IMG/VR virus record: IMGVR_UViG_3300032167_002310
Strand: one strand, 5' to 3'
From: a virus
Taxonomy: Duplodnaviria; Heunggongvirae; Uroviricota; Caudoviricetes
Length of the DNA stretch: 63,257 bases
The notes below the pieces were generated by a model. The model ran no database searches and had not been told where the DNA came from. It saw only the letters and a program-made list of their open reading frames with translations. Positions 13,905 to 34,592 of this stretch are shown here, piece by piece. Each line of letters starts with the position of its first letter. The stretch's first letter is position 1. The position numbers and the translations under genes are program-made.

Positions 13905-13914
13905 TATATAAAAA

Positions 13915-13950
13915 GTTAGCCTGGCCTTAATAGGCCAGGTTAATTTAATT
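13915..13950 (+). terminator. Rho-independent terminator after the 1849-aa gene
   Basis: Inverted repeat cctggcc / ggccagg (13920-13926 / 13933-13939) with 6-nt loop, followed by a T-rich run ttaatttaattt. Confidence 0.55.
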
Positions 13951-14010: not shown

Positions 14011-14970
14011 TTGGCTTACGTACAGCAATTAGGTAATTACGTAAAGTTTTTAAGAGGTACTCCTACCGCATGGGAAAGACTTGGCGCAAAAGATGCCGAT
14101 ACCTTGTATTTTATTTCTAAAGATGGAGAAGATAAAGGTAAATTATACCTTGGAGATAAGTTAATTGCAGATGGTGAAAATATTACTAAAATTGAAGATT
14201 TAGAAAATGTTTTCATTGAGTCTGGATTGCCTTCTAACTCTATCTTGGTTTATGACATAAATACTGAGGGATGGGTTCCTAAGACCCTTCAAGAGATTTT
14301 TGCTCTTGTTGTCAGCGTAATGACAGGTGCGACAGCAGAAGAGAATGGTACTTCTGGTCTTGTACCTAAACCTGAAAAAGGTCAGCAGAATCTCTACTTG
14401 CGCGGTGATGCTACATGGGCTAACCCAACCGCGGCAGTCGAGTTAGACATTCAAAAACTTAACACGGATTTAACAAATGCAACAGAGCAATTTGTTCAAG
14501 AGATTAAGACCTTAAGAGGTGGCTATCCTGACACTTCTACAATCCCTCAAATTGCGCAGTCCATTGTTAGTATTGAAGTTGCAAAGCTGGTAGCAAATGC
14601 TCCAGAGCAATTTGATACTTTCAAAGAAATTGCAGATTGGTTGCAAAAACACGATAATGTTGCAACTGTAACTCAGTTAAACGATCGTGTTGAAAGAGTT
14701 GAATTAGCAGTTTTTGGTCCTACTGATGGCAGCGTGAATGGCCTCGTACAGGACATGTCTAATGTTAAAATCGCTTTGTATGGCGACAGTGAGAACGTTG
14801 GTATTATTGCCGATGTTACATCACTTATGTCTCGAGTTCCTTCAATGGAAGGCAAGATTGTAACATTAGAAACAAAATACAACACAGTTTCTACCGAAAT
14901 CGAAAACATTAAGGATATCCTCAAGTGGCGCGATTTGGTATGGAAAGATGATGAAAATATCACAGCTTAA
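14011..14970 (+). CDS. Tail fiber/adaptor protein (319 aa) with the shared N-terminal anchor motif and a central coiled coil; TTG start
   Basis: TTG start 8 nt after aggagg; N-terminal motif TLYFISKDGEDKGKLYLGDKLIADG shared with three other tail genes; coiled coil mid-protein. Confidence 0.5.
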   Translation: MAYVQQLGNYVKFLRGTPTAWERLGAKDADTLYFISKDGEDKGKLYLGDKLIADGENITKIEDLENVFIESGLPSNSILVYDINTEGWVPKTLQEIFALVVSVMTGATAEENGTSGLVPKPEKGQQNLYLRGDATWANPTAAVELDIQKLNTDLTNATEQFVQEIKTLRGGYPDTSTIPQIAQSIVSIEVAKLVANAPEQFDTFKEIADWLQKHDNVATVTQLNDRVERVELAVFGPTDGSVNGLVQDMSNVKIALYGDSENVGIIADVTSLMSRVPSMEGKIVTLETKYNTVSTEIENIKDILKWRDLVWKDDENITA

Positions 14971-14995
14971 TAAAGATGGAAAGGAGTAAATAGCT

Positions 14996-16855
14996 ATGGC
15001 AGTTAATTCCAATGTTGGTTTTAAACTGGGTACCCAAGCCGCAGTTGACAACATTATTAAGAATAATACCGCTGTGTCAATTGGTAGCTTTTACTTAACA
15101 AGTGACACACACCGCTTATACATTGGTGAATCTGACGGTCTCCATCCAGTTAATGAGGGTGTTATTACTGTTGATACTATTAATGGTTTGCCTGATGTTT
15201 CAAGCAATCCTGGAGCCTATGCAGGTCGTTTTTACTACATCAAGAATGACAACATTCTTTGTGTATTCAACGGTTCCATCTGGGCGCAAATTAACAGTGA
15301 TACATATGTAAAGAAACATGAGTTTGTAGCAGTTAAGGTTGATGGTGAGGAAAATGTAATTGAGATTGATGGAAAAATCTACAATTACACTGCTGGAAAC
15401 GTCTCTCATACTTCTAATGCACCATTCCAAATTGAAGGTGCAAACGGAATTGTTGCAACTGTTTCTAAGTCTCAAAGAACTATTGGTCAAGAGACTATTG
15501 ATGTTTATAAAATCACTTTAACTGGTGATACTTATACTATTGGTACTAAAGCTAATGGTAGCAATGCACAAATTAAATTAGATTCTACGAATGCAAAGAA
15601 TAATTCTCTTGTAGAAATTGTTCCAGACATTCATGAAACTGAAGAAGAAACCAACGTAGTTCTTACTGTTGATGAAGCTAATAAAAAGATTAAATTAGCA
15701 GTTAAGGATACTAAGAATAAGACTCTTGCAATTACTGATGAAGCTGAAGGCTTTAAAGTATCTTTAACAGATACTTACAATAAGGTTTTATCTGCGGTTC
15801 TTAATCCTACCGTTGAATATGGTGTTGATGATAAAGACACTGCAACCTTTAAGAATGGTAAAGTTTCATTAGACGTATATTCCAAGTCTGAAATTCAGGA
15901 TAAGTTAAGAGCTCTTAACGCAATGACTTATAGAGGTACTATTGGTAACGGTGGTAGCGCAGCTACTCATATCGTAACAAGCGGCACCGCACCTAACTAC
16001 ACCTATAAGATTATGAATGGTACCACTGAAATTAAAGTATCTCTCGGTGATACCTTCATGGTTGTTGGTTCTGACTCTGTTTCCTTGAATAACAATGCTT
16101 CTTACTTATCTTCTGGTTCTCTCTTAATTGTTAGAGGTAATGCAGAAGGCACTGATGGTTATGTAACAAGTCCTCAGTTTGACGTAGTTGAATCTACTGT
16201 TGACTGGGATACTACTTATCACTTTGAAGGTGTTCCTGCAAGTGATGTTACTAATGGTGGTGGCATTCTTTTAAGAGATGACACCGCAAGTAAAACTATT
16301 CAAGGTAAGTTCATTGTAGAAGGCGGCACTCAGAGCGGCGGCGCAAAGATTGAAATTTCTCGTCAAACTGATAAGCTTGCAACAAACGGCTACCAAGAGA
16401 AATTGACAGTAAAGCATGGTACAGTAGCAAGAACTAATACCAAGAATGTAGATGATAGTGGAGTTGCTCGTGGCGCAATCGAAATGACTCCTCAAGAAGG
16501 CAACTTCGGACAAGAGGTAACCATTCCTGTTGTTATTGGAGTTACTACTGACTCTACTGGTCACGTAACTGGTGTTAGAACTCAGGACTATACTATTGAA
16601 GATACAAACGCTAAAATGGGCAAGAACCAATATGATACCAGCATTTATACAAAGGCTGATGGTACTCACGTTGGTGTTATTAAATCTACCGTAGGTGTTA
16701 AGTCTCATTTGAATGCAACTAATGAACTGGCTGGTTCAATGACCCTTAACAGCCAATCCCTTGTAATCTCTAACCAGGATGGCAATGGCGCCACTAATGG
16801 TGGTACAGCTGTTGCAGGACTCCAAATTGAGATGGTGTGGGGCGAATTTAAATAA
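14996..16855 (+). CDS. Abundant structural/tail protein (619 aa) carrying the shared N-terminal motif
   Basis: RBS aaaggagtaaatagctATG; N-terminal SFYLTSDTHRLYIGESDGL motif; followed by a strong terminator. Confidence 0.5.
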   Translation: MAVNSNVGFKLGTQAAVDNIIKNNTAVSIGSFYLTSDTHRLYIGESDGLHPVNEGVITVDTINGLPDVSSNPGAYAGRFYYIKNDNILCVFNGSIWAQINSDTYVKKHEFVAVKVDGEENVIEIDGKIYNYTAGNVSHTSNAPFQIEGANGIVATVSKSQRTIGQETIDVYKITLTGDTYTIGTKANGSNAQIKLDSTNAKNNSLVEIVPDIHETEEETNVVLTVDEANKKIKLAVKDTKNKTLAITDEAEGFKVSLTDTYNKVLSAVLNPTVEYGVDDKDTATFKNGKVSLDVYSKSEIQDKLRALNAMTYRGTIGNGGSAATHIVTSGTAPNYTYKIMNGTTEIKVSLGDTFMVVGSDSVSLNNNASYLSSGSLLIVRGNAEGTDGYVTSPQFDVVESTVDWDTTYHFEGVPASDVTNGGGILLRDDTASKTIQGKFIVEGGTQSGGAKIEISRQTDKLATNGYQEKLTVKHGTVARTNTKNVDDSGVARGAIEMTPQEGNFGQEVTIPVVIGVTTDSTGHVTGVRTQDYTIEDTNAKMGKNQYDTSIYTKADGTHVGVIKSTVGVKSHLNATNELAGSMTLNSQSLVISNQDGNGATNGGTAVAGLQIEMVWGEFK

Positions 16856-16895
16856 TTATTAAGTCTTAATTTTTATTTATTTTAGAGAGTTATGG

Positions 16896-16935
16896 AGCGG
16901 GAGAGAAGTTTTCTGCTTCTCTCCCGCTTTTCTTA
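16896..16935 (+). terminator. Rho-independent terminator
   Basis: Perfect 13-bp stem agcgggagagaag / cttctctcccgct with 7-nt loop, followed by tttcttatttt. Confidence 0.8.
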
Positions 16936-16972
16936 TTTTAGTATATAAAGATAGAAAGGAGATAAAACCGTA

Positions 16973-19900
16973 ATGACAGATAAGACAAAGTTTAGACCGG
17001 TCACCGGTCTTGATGAGTCCATCCAGAATGCGCCTAAAAATCCTGGTTGGGTATACTTCGCATCTGATACGGGGAAAATTTACTTCGATCTTGACGTAGA
17101 TACAAGAGTAGCCATGGGCGGAAGTGGTGTTTCATTACTTTATGGTGAAGCTGGTACCATTGACCCTGATGAATACTCCCTCTATCATTTAAGTTTTGAT
17201 GACCTTGAGGAAGAAGTAGTTCCAAAAGAAGGAGATTTAATTCTTAATCAAGATGGAATTTTTTACCGCGTACAAGAGGTTAATTCTGTAGAAAAGACAA
17301 TCGCTTGTACTATTATGTCTGTTAGTGGCGGCGGTGGTGGAGGCGGCGGCTCTAATTTTGCCAAGAAGATTGGTATTACAATGAAGAGCTTAGCAACTTC
17401 TAACTTACTGAATGGCCAGACTTGTGAGATTTTCTTCACAGCAAACTCTGGTATTGACGTTGATGGTTCTATTATGGATGATAGACTTACTGTTAGCTGG
17501 ACTTTGGCAGAAAGAATTGGTTCTGCGACTTCCGAGTATGCTAATGGTATTATCGACGTAGCAACTGGCGTAGAAGCTTCCTTCGAATTTGGTACTCGTT
17601 TACGTCAGAATGCGACATCTATTTTGACAATGTGGACACAGGGTACTAACTCTGGTGAGTCTACTAAGAAATCTGTAACTGTTCAGACTTCTGAATTGAC
17701 TTTGTCCCCAAGCGCAAACTTCTCAGCTTTAACACGTTACACTCCAGACAAGGTTCTTTTACAATGTAATGCTGTTGGTTCAATGGATAAGGTGCTTGAT
17801 TTCTATTTTGATGGAAATCTTATTCAGAGTAGAGTATTAACCGCTCAATCTGAAAACTTCCAAAGCTATCAGGTAGATAAAGAGATTGCTACTCATGGTA
17901 ATCATACTTGTCGTATTGAGTTATATCAAGGTATTAGAACCGGTAATGTGGTAGATAGAGGCTTGGCAGTTCCTGCTCTTGAATTCGAAATTGGTGTATT
18001 CGAAGTTGGAAATACAACCCCTGTTATTTGGTTAGGCGACTACCAAGAGACATATTATAACTATGACAATATTCAGATTCCTTTCTTAGCTTATGACCCA
18101 TCAAATTCTAATCAGATTACTGTAAACTTGAAAAAGAATGGTATTGAATTACCTGGTTCTCCTCGTACAATTGATACCACAAAGATGGATAAATGGAACT
18201 TGTTTGAAATCACTGATGCAGAGATGGAAAAACAGAACAGATATTCTATTAGTTGCGGTGATGTTGAAAGAACTATTGTTTTTGAGGTTATTCAAGACCC
18301 AACAAGAACAATGGAATATGTAAAACAAGAATCTTTATTCTTGAAGTTCGACGCTAAGGGACGTTCCAATAGTGAATCTGTTGTAAATAGACAGAATTGG
18401 GAAACCGAGGATGGCGCAATTAAGGCTGAATTCAAAGACTTTAACTGGTATAATAACGGTTGGGTTCTTGACGAAGATAATCAGACCTGTTTAAGAATTT
18501 CAAATGGCGCTGAGTTCTCATTGCCTATTGGTCAGATGACTTTTAACGATTCTACCATTGGTAGAGATTCTAACTCTATTGAAATTCAATTTAAAGTTAG
18601 AAATGTCCAAGACTACTCTAACTTGATTAAAAACGTTACTCGTTATAGCGGTGACGAAAACTTCTATAATGCGTTTATGGCACAGGATACATATGATAAC
18701 TACGATGCATTCTTGCAGTACTGGTTGCCAATTTATCCAATCGAGAAAGAAGAAGACCGTGTAAAATACGATGATTTGGAATTCTCTCGTGTTCAGAAGA
18801 ACATTACTCTTGAAAAAGCTGTATGTAAGTATTACTCTGGCGATAATGCTGGTGCTACTGGTTTGTGTTTAGGCCCTCAGGACGCTTTCTTCTCCAATGG
18901 TACTGATACAGTTTCTGTAGACTACGTTGAAGGTAAAATGGTTTACTTAACAATGGTATTCTCCAAGAGCTCTCAGTTAATGTATATCTACATTAATGGT
19001 GTTATTACTGGTGTTATTAAAGCATCTTCTGCAGACGCGTTTACCATTGAGAGTGACAAGTTAATCTTCAACTCTAACTATTGCGACATTGACCTTTACA
19101 AGATTCGTATTTATAATACTGACTTGAATGTTAATGACGTTGTAACTAACCACTCTGTAGATAAAAAAGATGTTCTTATTTATGACCAGAACAAACTTGC
19201 AGTTGAAAATGAGTCTATCAATGAGTTCCAGTTTAAGTTTGAAGAAATGATTAAGTATAATGAAGCCCATCCTGATGCTCCATTGATGCCATATATTGTT
19301 TACTCTACTGAGTTAACTGGTGACGACAGACTTCCTTGGTCTAAGAAGACTGAAATCGCTGCAAAAATTGAGTTCGTTAATACTGGTTTGGACGCAGCTT
19401 TTGCATCCGGCGAACTTTTAGATTTGGCTATTAAAGATGGCCTCTGCGCAGCTACTTCTGATGCAGCAACAAAAGAAGCTGCTGTTAAGACTTATTATAA
19501 ACACCACTGCCCATCTTGGACTGGTGATTATTGCGAATTGGTAGTTCAGGGTACTTCTTCTGAGTTCTATCCAAGACGTAATTATAAGATTAAATTAAAA
19601 ACCGATTATCATCCAAACGCAAACGAAAAGAAACTTTATCATATCTTACTGAATAAAGGACCTTTCGCTCAAGATTATCTTGACGACCAGGCTAAGCTTG
19701 CCGCAGGCGAGATTCAATATGGTAAAGAAAGTACTCGTCAAAAAGGATGGTACATGGATAACTATACAAACGCAACTGACAGATGGACCATGAAAGTTGA
19801 CTACATGGAGTCTTCTGGTTCTTACAATGCAGGTTTTGCTTCTCTCGTAGGTACTGCATATAGTAAGCATCCTCTCCAAGACTACATTAAAGCGGGCGCT

Positions 19901-22900
19901 TTCGCAGGTACAGATTCTATGATTACTGACGTAATTCCAGGTAATTCTGATATTCGTTGGGATGATTATAGAACATCTTTGAAGGGCTTCCCTGTTCTTG
20001 CTTTCCACAAGAAATCTGATGGTTCTTACCTCTATGTAGGTATGTATCGTATGCTCTTGGATAAGGGCTCTGATGATGTTCTTGGTTTCAATCTTCCTGA
20101 GGAAGTTACTGGTAACTTCTTAGGCGGAGAAGAAATGAGCAAGATGGCTGAATGTTGGGAATTCTGTAACAACGCACGTGGATTCTGTTCTTACAGAGAC
20201 CCATGGAATCGTGTTGAGTTGAGTTTTAGAGCTCCTAAGGGAGAATCCAACGAATTCACTTCTGCTGGTGCTCCTATCATTACAGATAACATTGAGTATC
20301 GTTATAATACTAATGAGGATTACATCGACATTCTTTTGAACTTGATTGATAAAGATGGTAAAGTTGCAGTAACTCCTGAGAACAACGCAAAGATTAAAGC
20401 TGAATTCGGTGATGAATACGACGTTATTGCTGACCCAGATAAGGGTCGTGAATTGATTTATAAGTTCTATAAGAACTGGGAAGACGTAAATAAGTGGGTA
20501 TGGTCTACTAATACAGAAAACGTAGTAGCAGAAGGTTCTTACCAAATTGCTCCTGTCGGTGATGTTCAGTATGCCCCAGGTACTTACTATGTTTATGATG
20601 AAGAGCAGAATGCTTACGTTAAAGAAGCAGATGATTCCGTATGGGATAGAAATACTGACTACTTTGAACAGCATGAAGATGAAAACGACGAGGGCGAAAC
20701 TGTAATTTCTTACGCAAAAGTTTTCGCAACAACTGGTATTTATCTCTGGTCTGAAACTACTTCCCCTGGTATGTTCTATTCTGAAAATGATGGAGCTTAT
20801 ACCACAATCAATAGCAAGACTTTCGATTCTGAGATTGATTACTATGAACTCGTTATTGACGAGTCATATAAAGATAACGCAGACAGACTCGTAGAAATCT
20901 GCAATGATGAAGCATATGATGCTTCTAAAGAATACTATACTTACGATGGTAGCGTTAAGGTAGGTACTCGCGCGACAGTTAAAGTAGATGCGGCAACCGC
21001 TGAAGCGAACTATGCGCCTGGTAAATACTACGTTCCTAAGAAAGTAAAATATGGTATTCGTGAGTACGAGTATGATACTCAGGAATATCGTGCAGCTAAA
21101 TTCGTTAATGAATTAACTGACCACTTTGACCCTGAATATCTTGCAACTTACTTCATTATGACTGAAGTTTTTGAGTGTTACGACTCTCGTGGTAAGAACT
21201 GTATGATGGCTTCTTGGGGTCCTCTCAAAGAAGGTGGAAATTACATTTGGTATCCTATCTTCTACGATATTGATACTCAGTTAGGTATTAACAATACTGG
21301 TATTCCTTCTTTCGAATACAATGTTGACGCTACTGAAGCTGGTAACTACTCTACATCAGACAGCTTACTTTGGAATAACTTCTATAAGTATTTCAAGAAC
21401 TCTTACATTTTGATGAAGTATAAGCATTTGAGAGGTACAACAGTAGGTGTTGACTGGACCAAGTTAAAGCAACCTACTTTGGAAAAGATTGAGAATATCG
21501 AATCTTGGTACAAGTTCGAAGAGTCTGCAACAGGTTCTTTAATGGCTCGTGGCGTAAGACCTCTTATCGCAACTAACCTTGATATGTGGTGGAAGTATAT
21601 TACTATTACCAATAACAAGGGTACTAAGGATGGTTTAACTGGATGGCTGAACAGAGATGGTCAGTACATTACAGACACCAACGGAACTTACTTCTACGCT
21701 TTGCAGGGTGACCGCTCACTCTCAAGACAGCAGTTCTTAACAAACCGTATCGAGTATATTGACTCTTGGTTGAACCAAGGTAACTACCAACGTGGTGGTT
21801 CAAATAATATTCGTGGTCGTGTGGCTGCTAATAACCCTACAAAGACTTCTGACGTATGGGTAAATAGTGTAGATACTCCTTACTACAATGAAAATGGTAG
21901 CAAGAGATATCCATTCGATGCTCAATATTGGATTGACTTAAAACCAATCCGAAGTTCTTATGTAACAGTATCTGACGATGCTGAAGCATATCCATCACAG
22001 AAATATGATGGTATTAACCCTGTTAAGTTTGAAATTACTGCTATCCAAAACGGTGTTATGAACAGTGCTAACTACCCTGAGCAGTTGCTCTATGTTTATG
22101 GTATGAATAAGATGGCAGACCTCGGTGAAATGCATAATCTCTACTGGCAGGAGTTCGACTTAACCGGTGACGCAACTCACTTGACAACCTTAAAGCTTGG
22201 TTATGACGGCGTTGAAATTGACCCAGATACTGGCGAAGAAATCACCTGGAGAAATGATAAGATTAACCAGCCTTCTATCCCTGGTAGTAAGGAAGATACT
22301 TTCGGTGGTATGCCACTCTTGAAAGAGGTTAACTTGTGTAATTTACAGGTTTCTACTGGTTCTCCTACACTTGACTTTAGTTCTTGTGAAAAGCTCCAGA
22401 ACTTCCGTGCAACTGGTTCTAACTTCGTAGCATTTAACTTCGCTGAAGGTGTTGCTCTTCATACTTTATACTTGCCTTCTTCTCTCACTCGTCTTGAGTT
22501 GACTGAAGCTAACTTGCTTACTAACTTAATTACTGAATACGAGGCTCCTAAGAGAGATACTCTTGGTAACTTAGTAGCAAAGAGAGGCCTTTACCTCGAA
22601 GGTATGTTTGAAGAGAATGCAACTGTAATCAATACTTTGAATTTCCGTGGCGGTAGCTTAGGCTACGACGGATATAAGTTGTTGAATAAATATTTTGAAA
22701 TTAGAAATGCTCAAAGCACAACTTCTAAGATTCAAATGACTAATGTAAACTGGTGTCCATATGTACAATTAGTTGAAGGTGATGAATACGACCCAACAGC
22801 TAAGTACTATAAAGATGATGGTCACTATGGTTTTGTCGAGTACGAATATGATGAGCATAAGTTTGAGACTGACATCTTGAATGGCGAACTCTATAGAAAA

Positions 22901-24436
22901 GACACAACCATTACAGATGATGATATCAATCAGATTAGCAGTATCAATATGTTAAAGACATTCATTACCGATAGTAAGTTCCAAGGTATGGCTGGTAACG
23001 TTCCTAATATCAGTGGTATTATTTATGTTAACAATACTGATGAAGCTGACATTGTTGATGAACTTTATGTAAGAAATACTCTTGTTAAGAACTATCCTTC
23101 CTTAACATTCTTCTTCGCTAACGTGAATAAGGCTAACACTGCTAAGTTTATCATTATGGAAGAGGACGGAACTTATAAGTATGTAGCTAATGCAAATCCT
23201 CAAAATACTGAAATTTCAGTACAAAAAGTTGCAGATGGCTCTTGGTTCTCTAACCCTTATGAGTTATACAATCCTCAGAAGGATAACTATGACTTCCACG
23301 GTTGGTCTACAACCAACGATAAGACAGGATTAATTTCAAGCGCCGAGGCGACACCTGCCGCACAGAAAGCTGCTTGGGAGGCATTAAGTCTTGAGGAAGG
23401 AAAAACTGACTACGTATTCTACGCAGTCTTCACAGTCCATGAATGGAATGTAAGATTCTGGGCGGGACCTTCTGAAACTCAGTTGACTGCTGTTGATGAT
23501 TACACAATTGTCCATGGAGAATCTCTCTACGACATTGAAAGCATTCCTTCAATTCCAGAAACATCACTCGGCGCTGAAGAGCGTTATCGTTTCTTAGGAT
23601 GGACTCAAAATGTTAAGAATCTCATTGTTGAGAATGCCTCTACTGCTAAGGTAGTAAACGTAAATACCATTATCGCTTCTCAAGATATGGACTTCTACGG
23701 CGTGTTCGTAAAAGAAAGCGTTTACGCTTCCGCAACTGATATGAAGTATTTTAAACCTGAACACATTACCTACATCGACGCTTTCACTCAGGAAGTTCTC
23801 GAAGGTTGGATGTTAACTCCTAATGTAAACCTCTCTGGTAAGATTACAATTCCTACTGAGTATAACAAAGAACCTGTTCTTCAGGTTGGTGGATTTAAGG
23901 GTTCAAACATCACTCATGTTTACTGGCATGGTACGCCTAAGGTTGTAGAAATCTTGCAGAATGGTTTTGCAGAGTGTGCAATGCTTGAAACATTCTCTAT
24001 GCCTAAGTCTATGAGAAGACTTGGAGCTTCCTGCTTCTCCGGATGTAGCTCTTTGGCTTGTCCTACTGATTTAGGAGACACTCAGATTTCTTACATTGGT
24101 AACTACGCTTACACTGGTTCCTTGAGAATTACTGATACTATTCCTGTGATGCAGTTACCTGCAACCTTGAAGCAGTTAGGTAATAACGCATTTGCGTACT
24201 TCATTAACATTAGTGCAGGCTCTGGCCCAGTTATTGAAACAGTTAACTTTGGTAAGCCAGGTAGTCCATCAGCGTTGACCACTATTGGTACAACTCCATT
24301 CGCACAGAATGAGCGTGCTATTAACAATGTTAATATCTACGTTACTGGTGGCACTCCAGACCCAACATTGCAGGCTACAGTCAACGACCGTATCGCTCCG
24401 GCTATCGCGGGTACCGTAAGCTATCCAAGTGCTTAA
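16973..24436 (+). CDS. Giant tail-associated adhesin-like protein (2487 aa): shared N-terminal anchor motif, poly-Gly linker, Listeria-Bacteroides-type repeats and BspA-like LRRs near the C-terminus
   Basis: N-terminus WVYFASDTGKIYFDLDVDTRVAMGGSG; SGGGGGGGGS linker (nt ~17326-17352); FHGWSTTND...VFYAVF and YRFLGWTQN...FYGVFV repeat units; LRR-like segments LGASCFSGCSSL / IGNYAYTGSLRI / LGNNAFAYF. Confidence 0.6.
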   Translation: MTDKTKFRPVTGLDESIQNAPKNPGWVYFASDTGKIYFDLDVDTRVAMGGSGVSLLYGEAGTIDPDEYSLYHLSFDDLEEEVVPKEGDLILNQDGIFYRVQEVNSVEKTIACTIMSVSGGGGGGGGSNFAKKIGITMKSLATSNLLNGQTCEIFFTANSGIDVDGSIMDDRLTVSWTLAERIGSATSEYANGIIDVATGVEASFEFGTRLRQNATSILTMWTQGTNSGESTKKSVTVQTSELTLSPSANFSALTRYTPDKVLLQCNAVGSMDKVLDFYFDGNLIQSRVLTAQSENFQSYQVDKEIATHGNHTCRIELYQGIRTGNVVDRGLAVPALEFEIGVFEVGNTTPVIWLGDYQETYYNYDNIQIPFLAYDPSNSNQITVNLKKNGIELPGSPRTIDTTKMDKWNLFEITDAEMEKQNRYSISCGDVERTIVFEVIQDPTRTMEYVKQESLFLKFDAKGRSNSESVVNRQNWETEDGAIKAEFKDFNWYNNGWVLDEDNQTCLRISNGAEFSLPIGQMTFNDSTIGRDSNSIEIQFKVRNVQDYSNLIKNVTRYSGDENFYNAFMAQDTYDNYDAFLQYWLPIYPIEKEEDRVKYDDLEFSRVQKNITLEKAVCKYYSGDNAGATGLCLGPQDAFFSNGTDTVSVDYVEGKMVYLTMVFSKSSQLMYIYINGVITGVIKASSADAFTIESDKLIFNSNYCDIDLYKIRIYNTDLNVNDVVTNHSVDKKDVLIYDQNKLAVENESINEFQFKFEEMIKYNEAHPDAPLMPYIVYSTELTGDDRLPWSKKTEIAAKIEFVNTGLDAAFASGELLDLAIKDGLCAATSDAATKEAAVKTYYKHHCPSWTGDYCELVVQGTSSEFYPRRNYKIKLKTDYHPNANEKKLYHILLNKGPFAQDYLDDQAKLAAGEIQYGKESTRQKGWYMDNYTNATDRWTMKVDYMESSGSYNAGFASLVGTAYSKHPLQDYIKAGAFAGTDSMITDVIPGNSDIRWDDYRTSLKGFPVLAFHKKSDGSYLYVGMYRMLLDKGSDDVLGFNLPEEVTGNFLGGEEMSKMAECWEFCNNARGFCSYRDPWNRVELSFRAPKGESNEFTSAGAPIITDNIEYRYNTNEDYIDILLNLIDKDGKVAVTPENNAKIKAEFGDEYDVIADPDKGRELIYKFYKNWEDVNKWVWSTNTENVVAEGSYQIAPVGDVQYAPGTYYVYDEEQNAYVKEADDSVWDRNTDYFEQHEDENDEGETVISYAKVFATTGIYLWSETTSPGMFYSENDGAYTTINSKTFDSEIDYYELVIDESYKDNADRLVEICNDEAYDASKEYYTYDGSVKVGTRATVKVDAATAEANYAPGKYYVPKKVKYGIREYEYDTQEYRAAKFVNELTDHFDPEYLATYFIMTEVFECYDSRGKNCMMASWGPLKEGGNYIWYPIFYDIDTQLGINNTGIPSFEYNVDATEAGNYSTSDSLLWNNFYKYFKNSYILMKYKHLRGTTVGVDWTKLKQPTLEKIENIESWYKFEESATGSLMARGVRPLIATNLDMWWKYITITNNKGTKDGLTGWLNRDGQYITDTNGTYFYALQGDRSLSRQQFLTNRIEYIDSWLNQGNYQRGGSNNIRGRVAANNPTKTSDVWVNSVDTPYYNENGSKRYPFDAQYWIDLKPIRSSYVTVSDDAEAYPSQKYDGINPVKFEITAIQNGVMNSANYPEQLLYVYGMNKMADLGEMHNLYWQEFDLTGDATHLTTLKLGYDGVEIDPDTGEEITWRNDKINQPSIPGSKEDTFGGMPLLKEVNLCNLQVSTGSPTLDFSSCEKLQNFRATGSNFVAFNFAEGVALHTLYLPSSLTRLELTEANLLTNLITEYEAPKRDTLGNLVAKRGLYLEGMFEENATVINTLNFRGGSLGYDGYKLLNKYFEIRNAQSTTSKIQMTNVNWCPYVQLVEGDEYDPTAKYYKDDGHYGFVEYEYDEHKFETDILNGELYRKDTTITDDDINQISSINMLKTFITDSKFQGMAGNVPNISGIIYVNNTDEADIVDELYVRNTLVKNYPSLTFFFANVNKANTAKFIIMEEDGTYKYVANANPQNTEISVQKVADGSWFSNPYELYNPQKDNYDFHGWSTTNDKTGLISSAEATPAAQKAAWEALSLEEGKTDYVFYAVFTVHEWNVRFWAGPSETQLTAVDDYTIVHGESLYDIESIPSIPETSLGAEERYRFLGWTQNVKNLIVENASTAKVVNVNTIIASQDMDFYGVFVKESVYASATDMKYFKPEHITYIDAFTQEVLEGWMLTPNVNLSGKITIPTEYNKEPVLQVGGFKGSNITHVYWHGTPKVVEILQNGFAECAMLETFSMPKSMRRLGASCFSGCSSLACPTDLGDTQISYIGNYAYTGSLRITDTIPVMQLPATLKQLGNNAFAYFINISAGSGPVIETVNFGKPGSPSALTTIGTTPFAQNERAINNVNIYVTGGTPDPTLQATVNDRIAPAIAGTVSYPSA

Positions 24437-24453
24437 TAAGGAGGTAAAAACAA

Positions 24454-24672
24454 ATGACTAAAACAGTTTATTACGTTTACCTTGGTACGAACGGGACTAT
24501 TACAAGTCCCGTTCATTTAGAGGACGTTTACTACATTCGTAAATACCTCTTGACTGCAGAAGATGGCAAAAAGCTTACTAAGGATAATAAGAATTTTGTC
24601 GATTCTGTAATGATTCCAGAAGGTGAACTTGACCTTTGGAAAGAAGTAAAGGCTCCAACTGGTCAGAAATGA
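24454..24672 (+). CDS. Small hypothetical protein (72 aa)
   Basis: Strong RBS aaggaggtaaaaacaaATG. Confidence 0.4.
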   Translation: MTKTVYYVYLGTNGTITSPVHLEDVYYIRKYLLTAEDGKKLTKDNKNFVDSVMIPEGELDLWKEVKAPTGQK

Positions 24673-24720
24673 TTATTATAAACTATTCTTTTTTCAAAAT
24701 TATTTGAAAGAAGAGTTGGG

Positions 24721-24749
24721 GGAGGCTGTGTTTTTCGCAACCGGCCTCC
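24721..24749 (+). terminator. Weak candidate hairpin (GC stem ggaggc / gcctcc with long loop)
   Basis: 6-bp GC stem at 24721-24726 / 24744-24749; no convincing T-run. Confidence 0.25.
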
Positions 24750-24785
24750 TTCAATTAAAATTTTAAGAAAGGATTGGACGATTGA

Positions 24786-26840
24786 ATGATTACATATGTT
24801 AATAAAAAGAATGCCGGTCAGTATCAATTCTTATATGAACTCGCTTCTAAAGACTTAAGAACCCATGATGGTGATGGTCGTGAAGTTCCATTCGGTTCTG
24901 CAGATGCGCTTCTTCCTATGGAAGCTATCACATTAGATGCAGAAACTTATATGCAGGATAGATACTATGTAATCGATGCAGTTACAGGCGGCTATACATT
25001 GTGTACAGATGAAGAGTTCGACGCAGCTAAGTCCTACTACAAGAGTGATGATATCACCACTCTGGACGAGTATTTCTCATTCATTGAAGAGTTGAACAAA
25101 ATTAATCGTAATAAGTACACTCGTCTTCCATTAGATGAGGAAGTCTTTACAATTAACGCTGACACAAGATTTATTACCGTACCTCCTTCATTTGCTTCTA
25201 ATGGCGTTGCTGTTCAGGGTGATGAAGTTGCTGAGGTTGTATATTTTAAAGTAAACAGATTCTTTGATGTAACTGACTTGGATACCAAGGACATTTACAT
25301 TCAGTGGCGTTCTCCTGCAAAAGATGCAAATGGTAACTTTATCGAGGGTGTTTCTGCACCTTGGATTAAAGATATTGAGAGTGAACCTGGCTATATCATC
25401 TTTGGTTGGCCTCTTTCTTCTACAATCACCCAGGCCGCAGGTGACGTTCAGTTCGCAGTTCGTTTCTATGAGTTCAATGATAAGAAGCAGCTTGTTTACT
25501 CCTTGTCTACTTTAACTCAGAAAGTAACTGTTAAACCTTCTCTCGATTTTAACCTTCCTGATATCATTCTTGATAACAAGGATAAGATTGATGATATGAC
25601 AACTCTTATCAATGACAGATTTGAGAACTCTACTCTTGTTAGCGGTTCTGTTGAGGCTATTGATCCTCGCTGGACTAAAGTTCTCACTGAAACTGATAAG
25701 GAAATCGTAAACCTTGACAAAGATGAAAATGGTTTCAGAACCAAGTCCATTACTAAGAGTGTTCAGGCTGTTGCTGATGACGGCGGTCGTATCTCTTACG
25801 GCTGGAGAAAGTTCTCCATCGACAATGGCGCAGGCTTAGATATGTTCTCTGAAATCACTATGGCTTTGACCGAGGATACCGAGAGACAGGATGGTAAGTT
25901 GTACTACCAGAAGGCTGTTGCTCCAGCTTCCGTTGGTGACTACATCCTTTATAATGGAAGCTTCGATAAAGACGCAGATGAATATCCAGTTGATGGTATC
26001 TTTGAGAAGTTCTCTACTGGTACAATCGATGGAATTGGTGAGTACTTTGTATTCGCGACTAACCGTTTGCGTAACAGCACTAAGAAAGTTCAGTCTAAGA
26101 CAATTATTGTTCCAAGACCAAAGCTTCCTGTATTCGCTGATGACGCAGCAAATCTTCCTTTGTCTGGCATTTTGTTAGCTGACAAGGAATATGATTTATC
26201 TCTTAAAGTAAATCCTACAATGCCTGACGCAGGTAAGTTTACTTATCAGTGGCAGAAGTGTGCTCCTGGCAAAGACCCAGCAATTGAAGAGTCTTGGGAG
26301 AACATCACAGATGCAGTTGCAGAAGAGTATCTCGTTGAAGGTACTGATGTTGAGACTGCTGAAGCTGGCGGTGTAGGTGATGGCTATTATAGAGTAGTTG
26401 TTACTAACAACGTAAACAAGGAATCTATTTCCTTAAATAGCTATGCTTGTAGAGTAACTCACACAGCAGCAACTCCTAAGGTAAGTGTTGTTGGTGACAT
26501 TAGCTTTACTGTTGATGACATGCTTATTGACCATCAATATCTTGAAGTAACTCATAGCTTTGCTGCTAACTGCGGTGAAACTATTCAGAGAACTGAAGAT
26601 GATAAGATTTCTTATCAATGGTTCAAATATAGAGCTAACGGTAGAACTGTTGAAGATGACATTGAGGCTTCTGATGAAGGTCGCTACGAGAGAAACATTA
26701 ATGACTTGCTCATTGAAGGTGAAACTGGTGCAACCTATCAGCCTACTTCTTCTGGTTATTACTACTGTGAAGTAACCAACCTTTATAACGGAACTAAGGC
26801 TTCTAAAGTTTCAAGATTCTTCGCTGTTGCTGAAGCTTAA
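24786..26840 (+). CDS. Ig-like domain-containing virion surface protein (684 aa)
   Basis: Two I-set-like signatures: YQWQK...GYYRVVVTN and YQWFKY...GYYYCEVTN (W..K...Y.C.VTN pattern); N-terminal domain paralogous to the downstream 198-aa gene. Confidence 0.55.
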   Translation: MITYVNKKNAGQYQFLYELASKDLRTHDGDGREVPFGSADALLPMEAITLDAETYMQDRYYVIDAVTGGYTLCTDEEFDAAKSYYKSDDITTLDEYFSFIEELNKINRNKYTRLPLDEEVFTINADTRFITVPPSFASNGVAVQGDEVAEVVYFKVNRFFDVTDLDTKDIYIQWRSPAKDANGNFIEGVSAPWIKDIESEPGYIIFGWPLSSTITQAAGDVQFAVRFYEFNDKKQLVYSLSTLTQKVTVKPSLDFNLPDIILDNKDKIDDMTTLINDRFENSTLVSGSVEAIDPRWTKVLTETDKEIVNLDKDENGFRTKSITKSVQAVADDGGRISYGWRKFSIDNGAGLDMFSEITMALTEDTERQDGKLYYQKAVAPASVGDYILYNGSFDKDADEYPVDGIFEKFSTGTIDGIGEYFVFATNRLRNSTKKVQSKTIIVPRPKLPVFADDAANLPLSGILLADKEYDLSLKVNPTMPDAGKFTYQWQKCAPGKDPAIEESWENITDAVAEEYLVEGTDVETAEAGGVGDGYYRVVVTNNVNKESISLNSYACRVTHTAATPKVSVVGDISFTVDDMLIDHQYLEVTHSFAANCGETIQRTEDDKISYQWFKYRANGRTVEDDIEASDEGRYERNINDLLIEGETGATYQPTSSGYYYCEVTNLYNGTKASKVSRFFAVAEA

Positions 26841-26879
26841 TTTTGAGCAAGATTTCGCTAAAAAGGAGGGTTTAGGCTT

Positions 26880-27476
26880 ATGAAGACAGAATCTAAAGAA
26901 TACTATGATTTGCTTTATGAAATCCAGGATTTCAATAGACCGAGCTTAGCCGTCTTGCTTCCAGGGACAGAGAAGATTTATCGAGTGGACCTAAACACTC
27001 GTACAATCGAGGCTCCTGAGTATTTAAGCGTTGAATCTGACCATCGTTCAGAATATATTTATTTCAAAACTGGAAGATATTACGACAATCTTGATTTATC
27101 CGGTGCCGTGTGCGTGATCCAATACATCAACGCACTCGGTGAGCCGAGAGTTTTTGCCGTACCTTACTTCGACGTTGATACATTCTCTGATGATAATGAT
27201 ATGGTTTTTTATTGGAGAATTGACCAAGAGGTAACTAAGGCTTCTGGCGATGTAGAATTCTCTATTCGATTCTATTTACTTGACGACAATTATGTTGACA
27301 AGAAATTAATCTTTAACTTAAATACCTTACCTGCTTCAAGTAAAGTATTATCTGGTATCGATTTTGACCCAGAAGGATTCAAACCTAATGAGGATTGGAT
27401 GGCGGACTACTTAGCTCAAATTGCGGCAGCCGCAAAAGAAGCTTATGAAAAGGACGTATACTGGGTAGTAATTTAA
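26880..27476 (+). CDS. Paralog of the N-terminal domain of the 684-aa Ig-like protein (198 aa)
   Basis: ASGDVEFSIRFYLLDD / KKLIFNLNTLPASSKV aligns with AAGDVQFAVRFYEFND / KKQLVYSLSTLTQKV of the upstream gene. Confidence 0.5.
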   Translation: MKTESKEYYDLLYEIQDFNRPSLAVLLPGTEKIYRVDLNTRTIEAPEYLSVESDHRSEYIYFKTGRYYDNLDLSGAVCVIQYINALGEPRVFAVPYFDVDTFSDDNDMVFYWRIDQEVTKASGDVEFSIRFYLLDDNYVDKKLIFNLNTLPASSKVLSGIDFDPEGFKPNEDWMADYLAQIAAAAKEAYEKDVYWVVI

Positions 27477-27485
27477 GACTTTTTT

Positions 27486-27530
27486 GGGGAAGAGCATCCT
27501 TCGGGGTGTTCTTCCCCTTTTTCTTATTTG
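27486..27530 (+). terminator. Rho-independent terminator
   Basis: Imperfect GC-rich stem ggggaagagcatcc / gggtgttcttcccc with ttcg loop, followed by tttttcttattt. Confidence 0.7.
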
Positions 27531-27621
27531 GCCAGAAAGTAATAATATGACTTGAATTACTTTCAAAGATATATAGGATGAATTATAAAAATTGAAGCGA
27601 TAAAGGAGGTTTAAAAATTTT

Positions 27622-30600
27622 ATGGCAACCAATGTAAAATTTTCGACCGGTTTAGAAGAAGACCTTCTGAAGCTTAATTCTGATAAAACCTATGTCAATA
27701 AGATAGATAACGGACACATTTACTTCACAACAAGAACCAATGATGAAGGTGAGGTTATTGGTTCAATCTTTTATGACGTAGATGACAAGCGTGTAAGTAT
27801 GGGCGGCGGTATCGCTGAGCAAGCAAAAGCTGACGATATGAAACAAAACATCGCAGATACTTATGTGACAAGAATTTCAAGCGAAGGAACAAAGTACGCA
27901 AGTACCGACGGTGTAACAATTACTACTTATAATGGTAGAAATGTTGCATTGGATACTATTATGTTGCCGGTCGCAAGTGCGAACCGCGCAGGTACTGTAA
28001 TCGCCGGTGCGCAAACATTTGCCGGAAATAAAACTTTTAATAACAATATCTTATTTCCAAATGTTTCAACTGGAATTTCAAGCGGAATTCGTTGGACTGT
28101 TGGTGATAGCGATGGTGCCCGTATTATTACTGGCGCAACCGCAAGTGATGCGGGATACTTAGAAATTGCCGTAAAATCCGATGGAAACGAGCCAATTTAC
28201 GTACGTCAATATTCTGGTGATTTCGCGACTTTAGTACGAACCTTAACTTTGTTAGATGCTTCTGGTAATACAATTATTCCAGGAAGTTTACTTCCAACAG
28301 CAAAAGACACCAAAGATTTAGGCTCTGAAACCTATAGATGGAATAATGCTTATATTAAAAATGTTCAAGCAGACACTTTAAGTGGTCACTTAACAGGCTC
28401 ATTAACAGGTAACGTAACTGGTAATGTAACCGGACATGCCAGCTTAGATTTACCTTTAGCGGGCGGAACAATGACTGGTGATATTACATTTAAAGCAATT
28501 GCATCTTGGCCTGCCGCGAGCGGAGAAACTTACCCAATTAAATCTAAAGGATTAAAGTGGAGTGGTAGTTCTGATACTGCAGCTATCTATTACCAAGTAG
28601 ATGGTGCAGACAGTGGACATTTATATATTAGCATGGGTGACGATGATGCCGCATCTGTCAAGTTTGCTAAGAGTGGAATTGCGCACACAATTTTTGACAG
28701 CGCTGGTAAATTGTATCCAGTAACTAATGACACTGGTTATATTGGTACGTCTTCTAATAAATTTAAAGCTATTTATGCAACAAATTTCTACGGAATCATT
28801 GAGAAAGCATATCAAGATGAAAGTGGAAATAATATTAAAGCGACTTACGCTGCAACCTTAAAAAATCACGCTCATGATGGAAATGGTTGGAGCTTTAGAT
28901 TGTTAAATAAAAACGGAGCAGCTTTGGCTGATGCTCTTACAATTCCAGGAGCAACCGCAGAAAAAGCTGGTCTCATTACCACAGGTGCTCAGACTTTTGC
29001 AGGAAAGAAAACCTTTAATGGTCAAGTTGTTATTGCAAATACAACTGATGCTGCTAAAGCAACCGCAAATTCTGGAGCATTAATCGTAGGTAACCCAAGC
29101 GGAGAGCATTTAGCTATTGATGGAAACGAAATTATGGCCAAAGCGAGCGGAACAACGGTTCGCGCACTTCTCTTCCAATTAGATGGTGGAGAAACTAAAT
29201 TTGGTGGTAGTGTTCTTCCATATACAACAGATACTCACTCTCTTGGTACTGAGGCTCTTGCTTGGAAAGAAGCTCACATTGGAGAAATTTATGGACATTT
29301 AACAGGTTCTTTAACTGGTAATGTAACTGGCAATGCAACAAGCGCTTCAAAATTATTAACCGCAAGAAAAATTATCTTGGGTAATGATTTACAAGGTTCA
29401 GTATCTTTTGATGGTACTAAGGATGTTACAATTAGTGCGGCAAGCTATTCTGCTTCTATTGGGGGCGGCAATAAAGCTAATTATCCATGGCATAGAATTG
29501 CAACTACCGGCGCAAACGCAGTAACAAGTATTTACAATGATAAAGATATTGTTATTGTAATTCGTCACAGTTATAATAACGGTGGATATGGTATTGCTAA
29601 AGTATCTATGCGTACTAACAATGCTTCTGGTGGTGCAACTGCTAATTGTACTATTACTTGGTTAGTGAGATATAATATCGCAGAAGACGCTTTGCAAGCT
29701 GGATTTAGAAACACTGCCGCAGACTCTTATGCAGATTTGTTCTATAAATGTAACACTTATCCAAGAGCAACTGTATATCAACTTCAAGGTAATCGAGCTT
29801 GGACTTTAATTAGTTCTACTGAAGCAAGCGACACAACTACAACAGATAAGAAAACATCTTCTGAAGCATACGCTACTATTGCAGCCGCAGCAACTGAACT
29901 GGGACGTACATACACCCACACTATTGTGGCAGAAGATGGGGGTATTATTGGAAAGGCTTATATGGATGAGTCTGGCAATAATATTAAAGCTTCTTATCTC
30001 GCAAGCATTCAGCAAGTAACTTCTGATAAAGACACATTTACATTCCGTGGTTATAACAAGAATAACGCGGCAATGAATAACTTAATTATTATTCCAGCTG
30101 CAACTGCAAGTGGTACGGACCAAACAAAATGGAAAGCTGGTTTAGTAACTTCTCAAGCTCAAACATGGGCGGGAGATAAAACCTTTACTGGCAATATTAT
30201 TATTGCACATACGGCTTCTACTGATATGACCGCAAGTTCTACCAATCCAAAAATTACTTTCTCTGAAGGTGGTACTCATCAACCAGTACATTTAATTTAT
30301 ACAGATTATGATGGTTATCGTAGTCCTGCAGGATTAAAAGTTATTGGTGGCACAAGCGCAACCCCTGCTTGGTTTGAAGTAGAAGGTGCATTGTTTGTTG
30401 GTGGAGCATCAACTCTCAATGGTAATGTATCTATCAAGGGTAATATTATGCCTCAAGTAGATAATACCTATGTCATTGGTGATTTGAACGCTAAGTGGAA
30501 AGATATTTATTCTACTACAGCACATGTATATAACACACTTTATGTAAATACTTCTACTACTGGCACTGTTGGTGGTATTGCATTGCATGGTACTGTTGAC

Positions 30601-33600
30601 CCAACAGCCTATGGTATTGCAATGCGTAGTAACCTTGGTGCTCATGGTTATGCAACAGACACTTGGAATACGTATTTCATGATGTCTAATGGCGCAACTC
30701 GTGGTTGGGTATTTAGAAATGGAACTACTAATGTAGCGTCTATTAATGGTCAAGGTTATATTTCAGCTAATAAGCTAAACTTGAATAGAACTGGTGGTAT
30801 AGCCAACGGTCGTATTAGCTGGTACAGCACAACATATAAGACATGGCATGATTATATGTCTAATGTTGTTGCAGGAGGATGCCCAAGTGGTGGAACTCCT
30901 TCAATTCTCGGTGCTGTTAAGACCTGGGCACTTAGAAGCTATATTGAAAATGCAAGTGGACATGGTTGGTTATGGGAGTCTGCCGCAGAATCAAATACTG
31001 GAACTCCTACTCCAAGAATGGCCTTGTCCTCTAATACTGGTAAACTTTACCTCTCCAATGATTTAAATATTATCACTGGAGATACAGATAAATTCGTTCA
31101 TTATTTGTATGACGGAACTGAAGCTAATACAATTGGTGCCTCTTGGAGAGCTGGTGTAAAACAGTCTACCACAGATAATGAATATGTCATTGAATCTGGT
31201 AGCGCAGCAACCACTGCAACTGCTTGGCTCAATGGATTAAAAATTACTCAAGCAACACTTAATGCTACTTTTGGTACTTCTGCTTTAGGTGGTTTAGGTA
31301 TTGCAAATACTTCTGCTACTACTGGTCACGGCATTTCCTTGTATAGCGGAGGTATGAGTGGCAAACCAACTTATGGTTTAATGTTTGCGGGTACGGCAAC
31401 ATTTAAAACTCATGGTTATGTAACTGGCGACTGGGCTACTTACTTCACTATGAATGGTACAGCAAATCGTGGTTGGATTTTCTTGAAAGATGCAAATCCA
31501 GTAGCATCTATTAGTAATGATGGTAAAGCTAACTTTGGAGAGACTTACATTAGAGGTCCTTTAAAGATTGGTGATAATGCGAATGGTGATACGAACTATA
31601 TTGCATTTTATGGAACAACTGGAGATAATCCTGGTTCATTTAATCACGCATATATTGGTGAAAATCTTTGGGGAACCAATGAGCGTAGTGAATTGTTAAT
31701 CTTTAAAGGTAATGATATTGGAACAACTGCTACAGGCCCAGATAGAATTCGTCACGTTGCTGCAGCTCATTTATTCCAAGTTTATACTACCGCTTTAAGT
31801 GGAACTTGGACTACAATTTGTGATTCTACTGTTCCAGTTAGTGTATTTGAAATTAACCAGTCTGGAATCGTAGTAACAGGTGCGACTACAATTAGTGGCA
31901 ATGCCACTGTTGGCGGAACTCTTGATGTAACTGGTAATACAAGTCTTGGTGCTGAATTAAGTGTAACAAGTTATGCTAAATTTAAGCAAGGTAGTGCGGC
32001 TACTGGTCTTAATACTGGTGCAGTGCAAGTGACTGGTGGTATTAGCGTAAGTGCAGCTTCTTATATTGGTGGAGCATTAACTGTAAATAGTACAATTAAT
32101 GCAACTGGTAATGTGACTGCTCCAAGATTTATTGGACTGGCAGATAGAGCAACTTTGATAGACGCAACTCTGTCTGGTACATCTTCTGCAACACATTTAA
32201 CTGCTCATCCAGCAACCGCAGGTCGTGTAGCATTTTATTATAATGTCAATCCATGTACAGGATTATTCACAACAGATAATAATGCTAATTTCTTGATTAC
32301 TCTTAATAAGCACTCTGGTAATTATGATTCTCAATTAGGATTTAGTTCAGATGGAAATATCTATTATAGAAGTTTTAATGGCTCTGCATTAGATACAACA
32401 ACTGGTTGGCAAATGTTACTTACGACTGCAAATGTAACTGGTGAATTAGATGGCCGTTATGTAAATGTCACTGGAGATACTATGTCTGGTGCATTAAAAG
32501 TTCCTAATATTACAATTAGTAGTACTTCAAGTATTGCACATATTCAATTCTCTTGTACTACTTCATACAATTACTTACATGTTCCTTCTACTGAGGGTAA
32601 AATTGCATTTTGTGCAGCTGATAGTTTATCTTTGAAGGGTTCAGCTTTGGTTGTTACTAACACAGGCATTGTTCCTGGAAATAACAATACATTCACTTTA
32701 GGTAGCTCTTCTGCTTATTGGAGTAGGGCTCACTTAGGAGCATTAACAATGTATGGTAATATTACATATGCTAATGGTTCTTATACTGATTATGAAATGA
32801 TTAAGTTTGTTACCGGCACTGGAGATGGTTGTGGTATTGTAATTGGCGGTGGCGGTCTTGCGGTATTTGGCTCAGGCGAGTCTGCAAGTAATTTTGTATC
32901 TGCTGCAGGCTTAGCTGGCAATACTGAAACAACTTATATCACTTCTGATAATGGAATTTATTTTGTAACTAATTGTCAGACTATTGCAGATAGAAATGAA
33001 AGTATTTTTGTTTCTGGTGGACAAATTAGCAGACCTGGAACTTCAACTTCTTGGTATTTAGGAAGAAGTAACGCTCTCTTAAAAATTACTTCTTACTTAG
33101 GATATAATGCTATTTATTCTATGAAAACAACCAATGGAGACTGGTCTTGTGGTGTTTATAGTAGCAATACTTTGTATTGGTCTTATGTTACTGATACTAA
33201 TTTTAATGCGGGTACAAATGAAACTACTGCTCAAATGAGGCTAACTGCTGATGGTTATTTATATGCTACAAGAGTATATAATGCTGTATGGAATGACTAC
33301 GCAGAGTGTAGAAGTGCAGATACAGAAGAGCCAGGTCGAGTTGTTATTGAAGGTAAATTTGGTATTATGACTAAATCTACTAAAAGACTTCAAGCTGGAG
33401 GTAGTATTATATCTGATACGTATGGCACTTCAATGGGAGAAACAGATAATTGCAAAACTCCAGTTGCAGTAGCGGGTCGTGTACTTGCATATCCATATGA
33501 AGATAGATATTCTTATCCTTTGGGTGCGGCGGTATGTACTGGACCAAATGGTACAGTAAGCTTAATGACTCGTGAAGAAATTCGAGAATATCCAGAACGT

Positions 33601-33773: not shown

Positions 33774-34118
33774 ATGGTAAAATACTATTTAGTAATCAAT
33801 GACAATGCTGAAAAATCTTATCTTATTGGTCGTTTCAATGAAATGATTTTACCAGATATGAAGCGTCAGTTATCTGTCACACTTTATCATGAAGACTCTT
33901 TAAATGGAGATTCTATTTTAGTTGATTTAGCTGTTTACCAAGCTGAAAACAGTCTTACTAAAATTGCTATTAAAGATGCAAACGATAAGACGATTTATGA
34001 ATCAACTAATTACTCAAGATTAAATTCTTGCACTGCAAGCTTGCATAATATTACTGACCCAGAAGATGATTTTACTGGTATGGAGTATACAATCGGCGCA
34101 GAGGCAAGTATTGATTAA
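33774..34118 (+). CDS. Hypothetical protein (114 aa), first gene of a promoter-driven small cassette
   Basis: Directly downstream of the perfect promoter and RBS; no recognisable motif. Confidence 0.45.
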   Translation: MVKYYLVINDNAEKSYLIGRFNEMILPDMKRQLSVTLYHEDSLNGDSILVDLAVYQAENSLTKIAIKDANDKTIYESTNYSRLNSCTASLHNITDPEDDFTGMEYTIGAEASID

Positions 34119-34130
34119 GGAGGATAAATC

Positions 34131-34535: not shown

Positions 34536-34592
34536 AAACAAAAAAGGGGAGACCTTAGTAATTTCTTACTAAGGTCTCCCCTATTTTTTTTA
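34536..34592. terminator. Bidirectional rho-independent terminator at the convergence of + and - strand modules
   Basis: Perfect 13-bp stem ggggagaccttag / ctaaggtctcccc (34546-34558 / 34569-34581) flanked by an A-run upstream and a T-run downstream. Confidence 0.85.

Follow-up and report, generated by a model that had tools for sequence, protein, structure and literature searches.

Four fibre-like tail proteins encoded by the Caudoviricetes record IMGVR_UViG_3300032167_002310 (63,257 nucleotides; "the window" denotes this whole stretch) carry homologous copies of an N-terminal module of about 50 residues. The proteins comprise 319, 619, 2,487, and 2,023 amino acids and are referred to as A319, B619, C2487, and F2023. 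Our preferred explanation, held as a whole at a probability of roughly 0.55, is that the source is an uncultured large phage of the gut Firmicutes type, in which the paralogous modules serve as trimerising, virion-proximal mounts, each fibre having its own site. F2023 would be exchangeable, and A319, B619, and C2487 would be fixed.

Homology of the four N-termini

An initial annotation of the DNA had claimed a common motif in the four proteins and had suggested checking it by alignment, either pairwise or with a hidden Markov model (HMM). The pairwise comparisons failed for all pairs except one, whereas profiles and HMMs supported all four proteins. In Smith-Waterman alignments of the first 90 residues against shuffled sequences, only C2487 versus F2023 was significant (z = 9.8). 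B619 versus C2487 was marginal, and the pairs A319/B619, A319/C2487, A319/F2023, and B619/F2023 were at chance level. BLASTP of the N-termini was not significant either. Pairwise Smith-Waterman and BLASTP were rejected as a test, as they are too weak for 50-residue domains sharing 20–35% identity.

Family profiles were built from orthologues of seven related contigs, or from database homologues, and each was aligned by hhalign with a profile that pooled the three remaining families. This leave-one-family-out comparison gave 94.3% (E = 1e-7) for A319, 91.4% (9e-7) for B619, 98.0% (3e-13) for C2487, and 98.4% (9e-15) for F2023, as opposed to ≤0.1% for the N-terminus of the neighbouring U1849 family, which served as control. 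The alignment of B619 was in register across 49 columns. Against a diverse F-type profile, A319, B619, and C2487 reached 91%, 86%, and 98%, respectively. Similarly, leave-one-out HMMs were searched against the 524 six-frame open reading frames (ORFs) of the window. Every left-out protein ranked right after the three proteins in the model and above all unrelated ORFs, with E-values of 3.9e-4 (A319), 0.097 (B619), 7.6e-11 (C2487), and 3.9e-8 (F2023); the best unrelated ORFs had 0.23–1.4. All matches were N-terminal, and B619 was the weakest member. At the level of sequence profiles, the homology of the four N-termini, and with it the observation of a common motif, was confirmed.

A coherent alignment of 29 sequences from all four families yielded the consensus MAxxVKFxxGxxxxx...GxxYFxxD...GxxYxD...Rxx, with one invariant glycine and one nearly invariant tyrosine. 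The copies are located on the + strand at 14,032–14,175 in A319 (residues ~8–55, YVKFLRGTPTAW...KDADTLYFIS...GKLYLGDKLIADG), 15,011–15,160 in B619 (residues ~6–55, NVGFKLGTQAAVDNI...GSFYLTSDTHRLYIGESDGLHPVNEG), 16,982–17,128 in C2487 (residues ~4–52, KTKFRPVTGLDESIQ...GWVYFASDTGKIYFDLDVDTRVAMGGSG), and 27,628–27,813 in F2023 (residues ~3–64), where a loop is inserted between the second and third strands. The motif had been described as opening the proteins. It is N-terminal in all four, each copy beginning within residues 3–10; the strings quoted for it, however, lie at residues ~25–65 and start at residues 25–32, whereas the domain starts earlier, at residues ~5–10, with VKF/VGF/KFR-x-x-G. 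Searches of the window's ORFs and of 11 related loci matched the N-termini of the four fibres alone and found no fifth copy. Outside the N-termini, the four proteins had no detectable mutual similarity (BLASTP E > 0.1), in agreement with the annotation of unrelated C-terminal regions.

Conservation of the module and the exchangeable fibre position

When 50-residue windows were ranked by conservation within each protein, the module was placed 1st of 6 in A319, 2nd of 12 in B619, 5th of 49 in C2487, and 5th of 40 in F2023. In the A family it was nearly invariant across 65 homologues, although the proteins are only ~40% identical overall. Across phages, modules of one family were 49–56% identical, whereas modules of different families in the same phage had only 21–30% identity. 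Glycines, core aromatics, and one basic residue make up the positions shared by all four families. We read the four copies as old paralogues that arose by duplication and then specialised. Since each paralogue keeps its own sequence across the phage clade, the pattern suggests that four distinct partners or sites fit better than the one common adaptor or baseplate site proposed in the initial annotation, a claim against which these identities speak.

The same annotation assumed swapped distal domains. In seven of seven diverged contigs, A319, B619, and C2487 are present as core genes, complete and syntenic, and they are conserved along their whole length. F2023 homologues, in contrast, keep the N-terminus and match only 3–60% of the rest, and F-type N-termini occur in front of many different bodies. 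In the related contigs L010 and L011, a fibre of 1,473 or 1,805 amino acids with another N-terminal subtype follows the same pair of genes, D684 and E198, that stands ahead of F2023 in the window. An extra Peptidase_S74 gene occurred once in this region of a related contig. Judged from these comparisons, the F2023 position is a swappable fibre slot and A319, B619, and C2487 are fixed, so the assumption holds for the former and not for the latter.

D684 and E198 (24,786–27,476, + strand) are neighbouring conserved genes that always precede the variable fibre of this slot. They have a paralogous domain of ~175 residues in common (D684 residues 95–270, at 25,068–25,595, versus E198 residues 7–176, at 26,898–27,407; BLASTP E = 3e-17). 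Neither had a Pfam, PHROG, or PDB sequence match. They are candidate adaptors or partners of the slot's fibre. A BppU-like adaptor was considered and found unsupported, with no BppU_N in D684, E198, or their orthologues at E ≤ 10.

Predicted fold and probable trimerisation

Structures were predicted by AlphaFold2 for A319, using an alignment of the A family only, and for residues 1–62 of C2487, using the pooled alignment. The A319 model comprises a strand (residues 11–15), a helix (18–22), and three strands (32–36, 43–47, and 50–53), with a predicted local distance difference test (pLDDT) score of 58–75. In the C2487 model, a strand (6–12) and a helix (14–19) are likewise followed by strands at 26–30, 36–39, and 45–48, and the core has a pLDDT of 83–88. 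The order of elements, beta-alpha-beta-beta-beta, is identical in both models.

The best fold matches were weak, namely the N-terminus of Mtd, the trimerisation domain of collagen XV/XVIII, and HylP, which are trimerising end-domains. Because its matches are of this kind, the module is most likely trimer-forming, as far as the models go. Scores for the Mtd_N and HylP folds were below the usual significance levels, and the resemblance to the N-terminal domain of Mtd from Bordetella phage BPP-1 (1yu0; Mtd_N, PF18454) and to the N-terminus of the streptococcal phage hyaluronidase HylP (2c3f, 6x3m) had no sequence-level link. The match to the multiplexin (collagen XV/XVIII) trimerisation domain (3n3f, 3hon, 9bnb) was a weak fold match as well. 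Identity of the module with Mtd_N was rejected at the sequence level: one of the 29 aligned members matched (E = 0.014), and hhalign against the Mtd_N-positive proteins P0224, P0231, and P0204 gave only 0.2–6.3%.

When the pooled profile was compared with the PDB, it matched every blade of designed "Cake" beta-propellers and a pyrroloquinoline quinone (PQQ)-type propeller (RFKTGKAIEASPVIGEDGTIYVGSNDGHLY) at ~9 bits per blade. As each blade was matched, the module resembles one propeller blade in its sequence pattern. Propellers were not among the high ranks of the fold searches, and we therefore read these matches as a convergent hairpin pattern; part of the module's pattern would accordingly be generic to hairpins.

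Distribution of the module and relation to known fibre proteins

A 57-position profile of the four families was searched against 1.84 billion proteins, and 1,651 cluster representatives matched at E ≤ 1e-3. Among the top 150 of these, the match was almost always at residues 1 to ~60, in proteins of 48–3,245 amino acids. The N-terminal subtypes of the family (NYVKFLRGTPxAY..., MALFKILKG..., MANYVKFKQG..., and TKFRPVTG...) are joined to very different bodies. The module was not found in PHROGs, nor the MALFKILKG-type N-terminus in INPHARED, and ten family members were unnamed in their source databases or called only "hypothetical protein".

Pfam covers half of the module with PF24243 (Phage_tail_C, "Phage tail tip domain"; 26 positions, gathering cutoff 23.7 bits). 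This family scored 77.6 bits on three tandem copies in the database protein P0241 and 48 bits in a second one, P0328. Residues 1–160 of P0241 contain the module three times in tandem, ahead of immunoglobulin (Ig)-like domains, and residues 1–100 of P0328 contain an F-type copy followed by an A-type copy. Owing to these tandem arrangements, the module is considered an autonomous, repeatable domain. Of the window's own copies, the A319 N-terminus scored 18.2 bits on PF24243 (E = 0.0016), under the cutoff, and B619, C2487, and F2023 had no match at E ≤ 10. In hhalign comparisons with the PF24243-positive repeats of P0241 and P0328, A319 reached 97.8% (E = 1e-12) and F2023 86.9%, and the values for B619 (42%) and C2487 (10.6%) were weak. 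Profile-level homology to PF24243 members is thus indicated for A319 and F2023 and only indirectly for B619 and C2487. New here are the module family, large and uncharacterised and with only half of the module in Pfam, and its fourfold use in one uncultured phage clade.

The full-length A319 family profile matched the upper fibre FibU (gp68) of Staphylococcus phage 80alpha (PDB 6v8i, E = 1.7e-6), the relevant part being residues 364–388 (VKIWTGTENEYNYIYQKDPNTLYLI). As a positive control, this peptide exceeded the gathering cutoff of PF24243 with 28.2 bits. FibU and PF24243 display the same first-half pattern as the module, V-K-[FI]-W/L-R/T-G-T-x-x-x-[YW]...KD-x-x-TLY[FL]I. The fibre motif APExxDTLKEIA is likewise found in both the A319 family and FibU; its A319 form (APExFDTLKEIADW, window 14,590–14,640, residues ~195–210) aligns with FibU residues 266–311. 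PF24243 differs from the module in being a distal, C-terminal strand-helix-strand unit of 26 residues, whereas the module of the window has ~50 residues, two more strands, and an N-terminal position. None of the four copies is located at a C-terminal fibre tip, as PF24243 is.

With at least two fibres that have homologous N-termini and unrelated distal parts in one genome, the phage has the gene content of the multi-fibre class, in which it is well known that several fibres of a phage can have an N-terminal module in common (PMC7048315, PMC11414711). FibL and FibU of 80alpha, BppU of TP901-1, and the tailspikes of Ackermannviridae follow the same design, combining related N-terminal modules with unrelated distal parts. 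In 80alpha and TP901-1 the module is a BppU-like Ig domain, unlike that of the window, and Pfam gave no BppU_N match in any of the proteins A319 to F2023. For FibU, the mount is this N-terminal BppU-like domain, and the structure does not resolve the distal part of the protein past residue 123 (PMC7048315).

Proposed role of the module and alternatives

According to the preferred explanation, the module would gather three chains at the end of each fibre nearest the virion, where it would present the surface by which the fibre is mounted on the tail tip. The common core would build the fold, probably as a trimer, and paralogue-specific surfaces would bind different tail-tip partners or sites. 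Each fibre would then have its own mounting site or partner, with no competition of the four for one adaptor. F2023 would represent the exchangeable host-range slot and A319, B619, and C2487 fixed components. Phage fibres and spikes normally have their N-terminus on the particle side; given this position and the conservation of the module, we infer by analogy that it docks the fibre to the tail. Two observations weigh against this explanation. The nearest catalogued relative is formed by the last 25 residues of 80alpha FibU, which is the distal end and not the anchor, and the existence of C-terminal and tandem occurrences implies that anchoring is not a fixed role of the module.

These occurrences are a point in favour of a module that serves solely as a portable nucleus for oligomerisation or folding, in the manner of foldon or the collagen XV/XVIII domain, with attachment mediated by other regions or proteins and no docking function. 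Such a pure trimerisation role is a serious rival, if a somewhat doubtful one. It is favoured by the dedicated trimerisation domains among the best fold matches and by the independence of the domain from position, as the domain lies beside a collagen-like segment at the C-terminus of FibU (PMC7048315) and in tandem in P0241 and P0328. A folding nucleus, however, would not need a near-invariance that is specific to each paralogue and includes surface positions in phages that are only ~40% identical, and the overwhelming N-terminal placement in long fibres corresponds to the usual particle-proximal end. A model in which all four fibres dock via the shared motif on one common adaptor or baseplate site and swap their distal domains freely is quite unlikely in our view. 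The sharing of the module by four proteins, the exchange of distal parts at the F2023 slot, and the precedent of the BppU-like N-terminal domains common to FibL and FibU in 80alpha (PMC7048315) would fit it. Against it stand the low mutual identity of the copies compared to that among orthologues, shared positions that are mostly glycines and core aromatics, and the conservation of A319, B619, and C2487 as full-length genes and not as cassettes; moreover, no adaptor was found, D684 and E198 having no BppU or other match. Least probable, and by a long way an outside chance, is mere convergence on the generic beta-hairpin pattern of many beta-rich proteins (G-x-h-Y-h ... G-x-h-Y). The chance-level scores of four of the six pairs, the marginal pair B619/C2487, the propeller-blade matches, and the E-value of only ~0.1 for B619 are what it would predict. 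It does not account for an alignment that stays in register across all 50 residues of the unit, the VKFxxG strand and the helix among them, for four copies that all lie at the extreme N-terminus of fibre genes with no other match among the 524 ORFs, for the control family at ≤0.1%, or for the same predicted secondary structure in A319 and C2487 and the tightly N-terminal position of the family in the database.

A further reading, which we consider unlikely, is that the module is a very widespread portable trimerisation-and-docking unit in fibres of large gut Firmicutes phages, with paralogue-specific surfaces that act as an addressing code; the C-terminal half-module of FibU-like fibres could then be a matching connector by which fibres are joined end to end. 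If this is true, the code would direct the four fibres to separate places on a very large tail tip of the siphophage type.

Fibre genes can be recognised by the module in a large and common group of uncultured gut phages, to which no INPHARED isolate belongs. A defined N-terminal module would aid the annotation of receptor-binding proteins in metagenomes and would show where host-range-determining distal parts can be exchanged in fibre engineering; it might also serve as a compact trimerising tag. The understanding of multi-fibre phages is not changed by it.

The fibre genes and their signals

All four genes have a GGAG-type ribosome-binding site 6–10 nucleotides upstream of the start, as had been annotated. 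The annotated delimitation of units by terminators in three cases was likewise borne out. Strong, terminator-like hairpins on the + strand were located between U1849 and A319 (13,913–13,946; 15-bp stem), between B619 and C2487 (16,894–16,930; 16-bp stem followed by a T run), and between E198 and F2023 (27,486–27,517; 14-bp stem followed by a T run). As the hairpins precede A319, C2487, and F2023, and B619 directly follows A319, the likely units are A319–B619, C2487 plus a small gene encoding 72 amino acids, D684–E198, and F2023.

A319 (14,011–14,970, + strand, TTG start) is a short fibre protein in which the module is followed by a GLVPxP...FLRGDATW motif and a long coiled coil. The motif reads GATxxxNGxSGLVPxPxxGxxxLFLRGDATWANPT in full (window 14,315–14,430, residues ~103–140). 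For this protein, 720 full-length homologues of ~310 amino acids were found. Residues 139–249 are matched by PHROG tail-fibre families, and the AlphaFold2 model is helical across residues 141–304. A protein search of INPHARED gave marginal matches only, and a fold search with the full A319 model was uninformative. B619 (14,996–16,855, + strand) is fibre-like and lies in the same transcription unit. It had no Pfam or PHROG match, and a search of viral contigs found nothing; its orthologues of 548–621 amino acids occupy the same position in seven contigs.

C2487 (16,973–24,436, + strand) resembles a giant fibre or adhesin, and its orthologues comprise 2,335–2,602 amino acids. The family phrog_14959 spans residues 98–552. 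Near the C-terminus, a BspA-type leucine-rich repeat was detected at residues 2,308–2,411 (window 23,894–24,205; Pfam LRR_5, E = 3e-10), and a weak match to the Listeria-Bacteroides repeat (Flg_new) at window ~23,210–23,340. Repeats of both types are characteristic of adhesins on the surface of gut bacteria. Most C2487 orthologues keep LRR_5, which was not reported in the related contig L009. The 72-residue ORF (MTKTVYYVYLGTNGTITSPVHLEDVYY...) follows C2487 at 24,454–24,672 and recurs at this position in every related locus (65–73 amino acids); its product may assist C2487 as a chaperone or assembly factor.

F2023 (27,622–33,693, + strand) is a long mosaic tail fibre in the variable slot, with the tail-fibre family phrog_20242 spanning residues 1,163–1,313. 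Many of its 267 homologues open with variants of the F2023-type N-terminus. A word-based search with the first 120 residues found nothing, and a search of viral contigs retrieved only one near-identical fragment.

Genome context and related phages

Tail genes and a holin (34,131–34,535) occupy the + strand up to ~34.5 kb, and replication genes are encoded on the − strand (DnaE-type polymerase, NrdD, RecJ, DnaB, primase, and NAD ligase). Coding strand and GC skew switch sign at ~34,000–35,000, between the tail/lysis module (+) and the replication module (−). INPHARED had no nucleotide match to the window. The polymerase is 39% identical to those of phAss-1, Enterococcus phages (EF1 and the VRE9 series), and SPbeta-like Bacillus phages. 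The exact E198 protein was found in 48 assembly blocks, mostly contigs of 50–200 kb, and the phage is therefore regarded as common. The order U1849-A319-B619-C2487-72-residue ORF-D684 is kept in seven diverged contigs of 45–190 kb, which supplied the B619 and C2487 orthologues.

The related contig L006 (5,893–20,665) has 30 in-frame TAG codons across its orthologues of U1849, A319, B619, and C2487, and all four of these tail genes terminate in TAA. For this reason, some members of the clade appear, from their sequences, to recode TAG, as was reported for phAss-1 (PMC10607447). In the window itself, neither in-frame stops nor a tRNA gene were found. Amid the replication genes, a 316-residue ORF (59,159–60,109, − strand) matches homing-endonuclease families of PHROG in its C-terminal domain (E = 1e-14 to 2e-16), and one of these families is of the GIY-YIG type.

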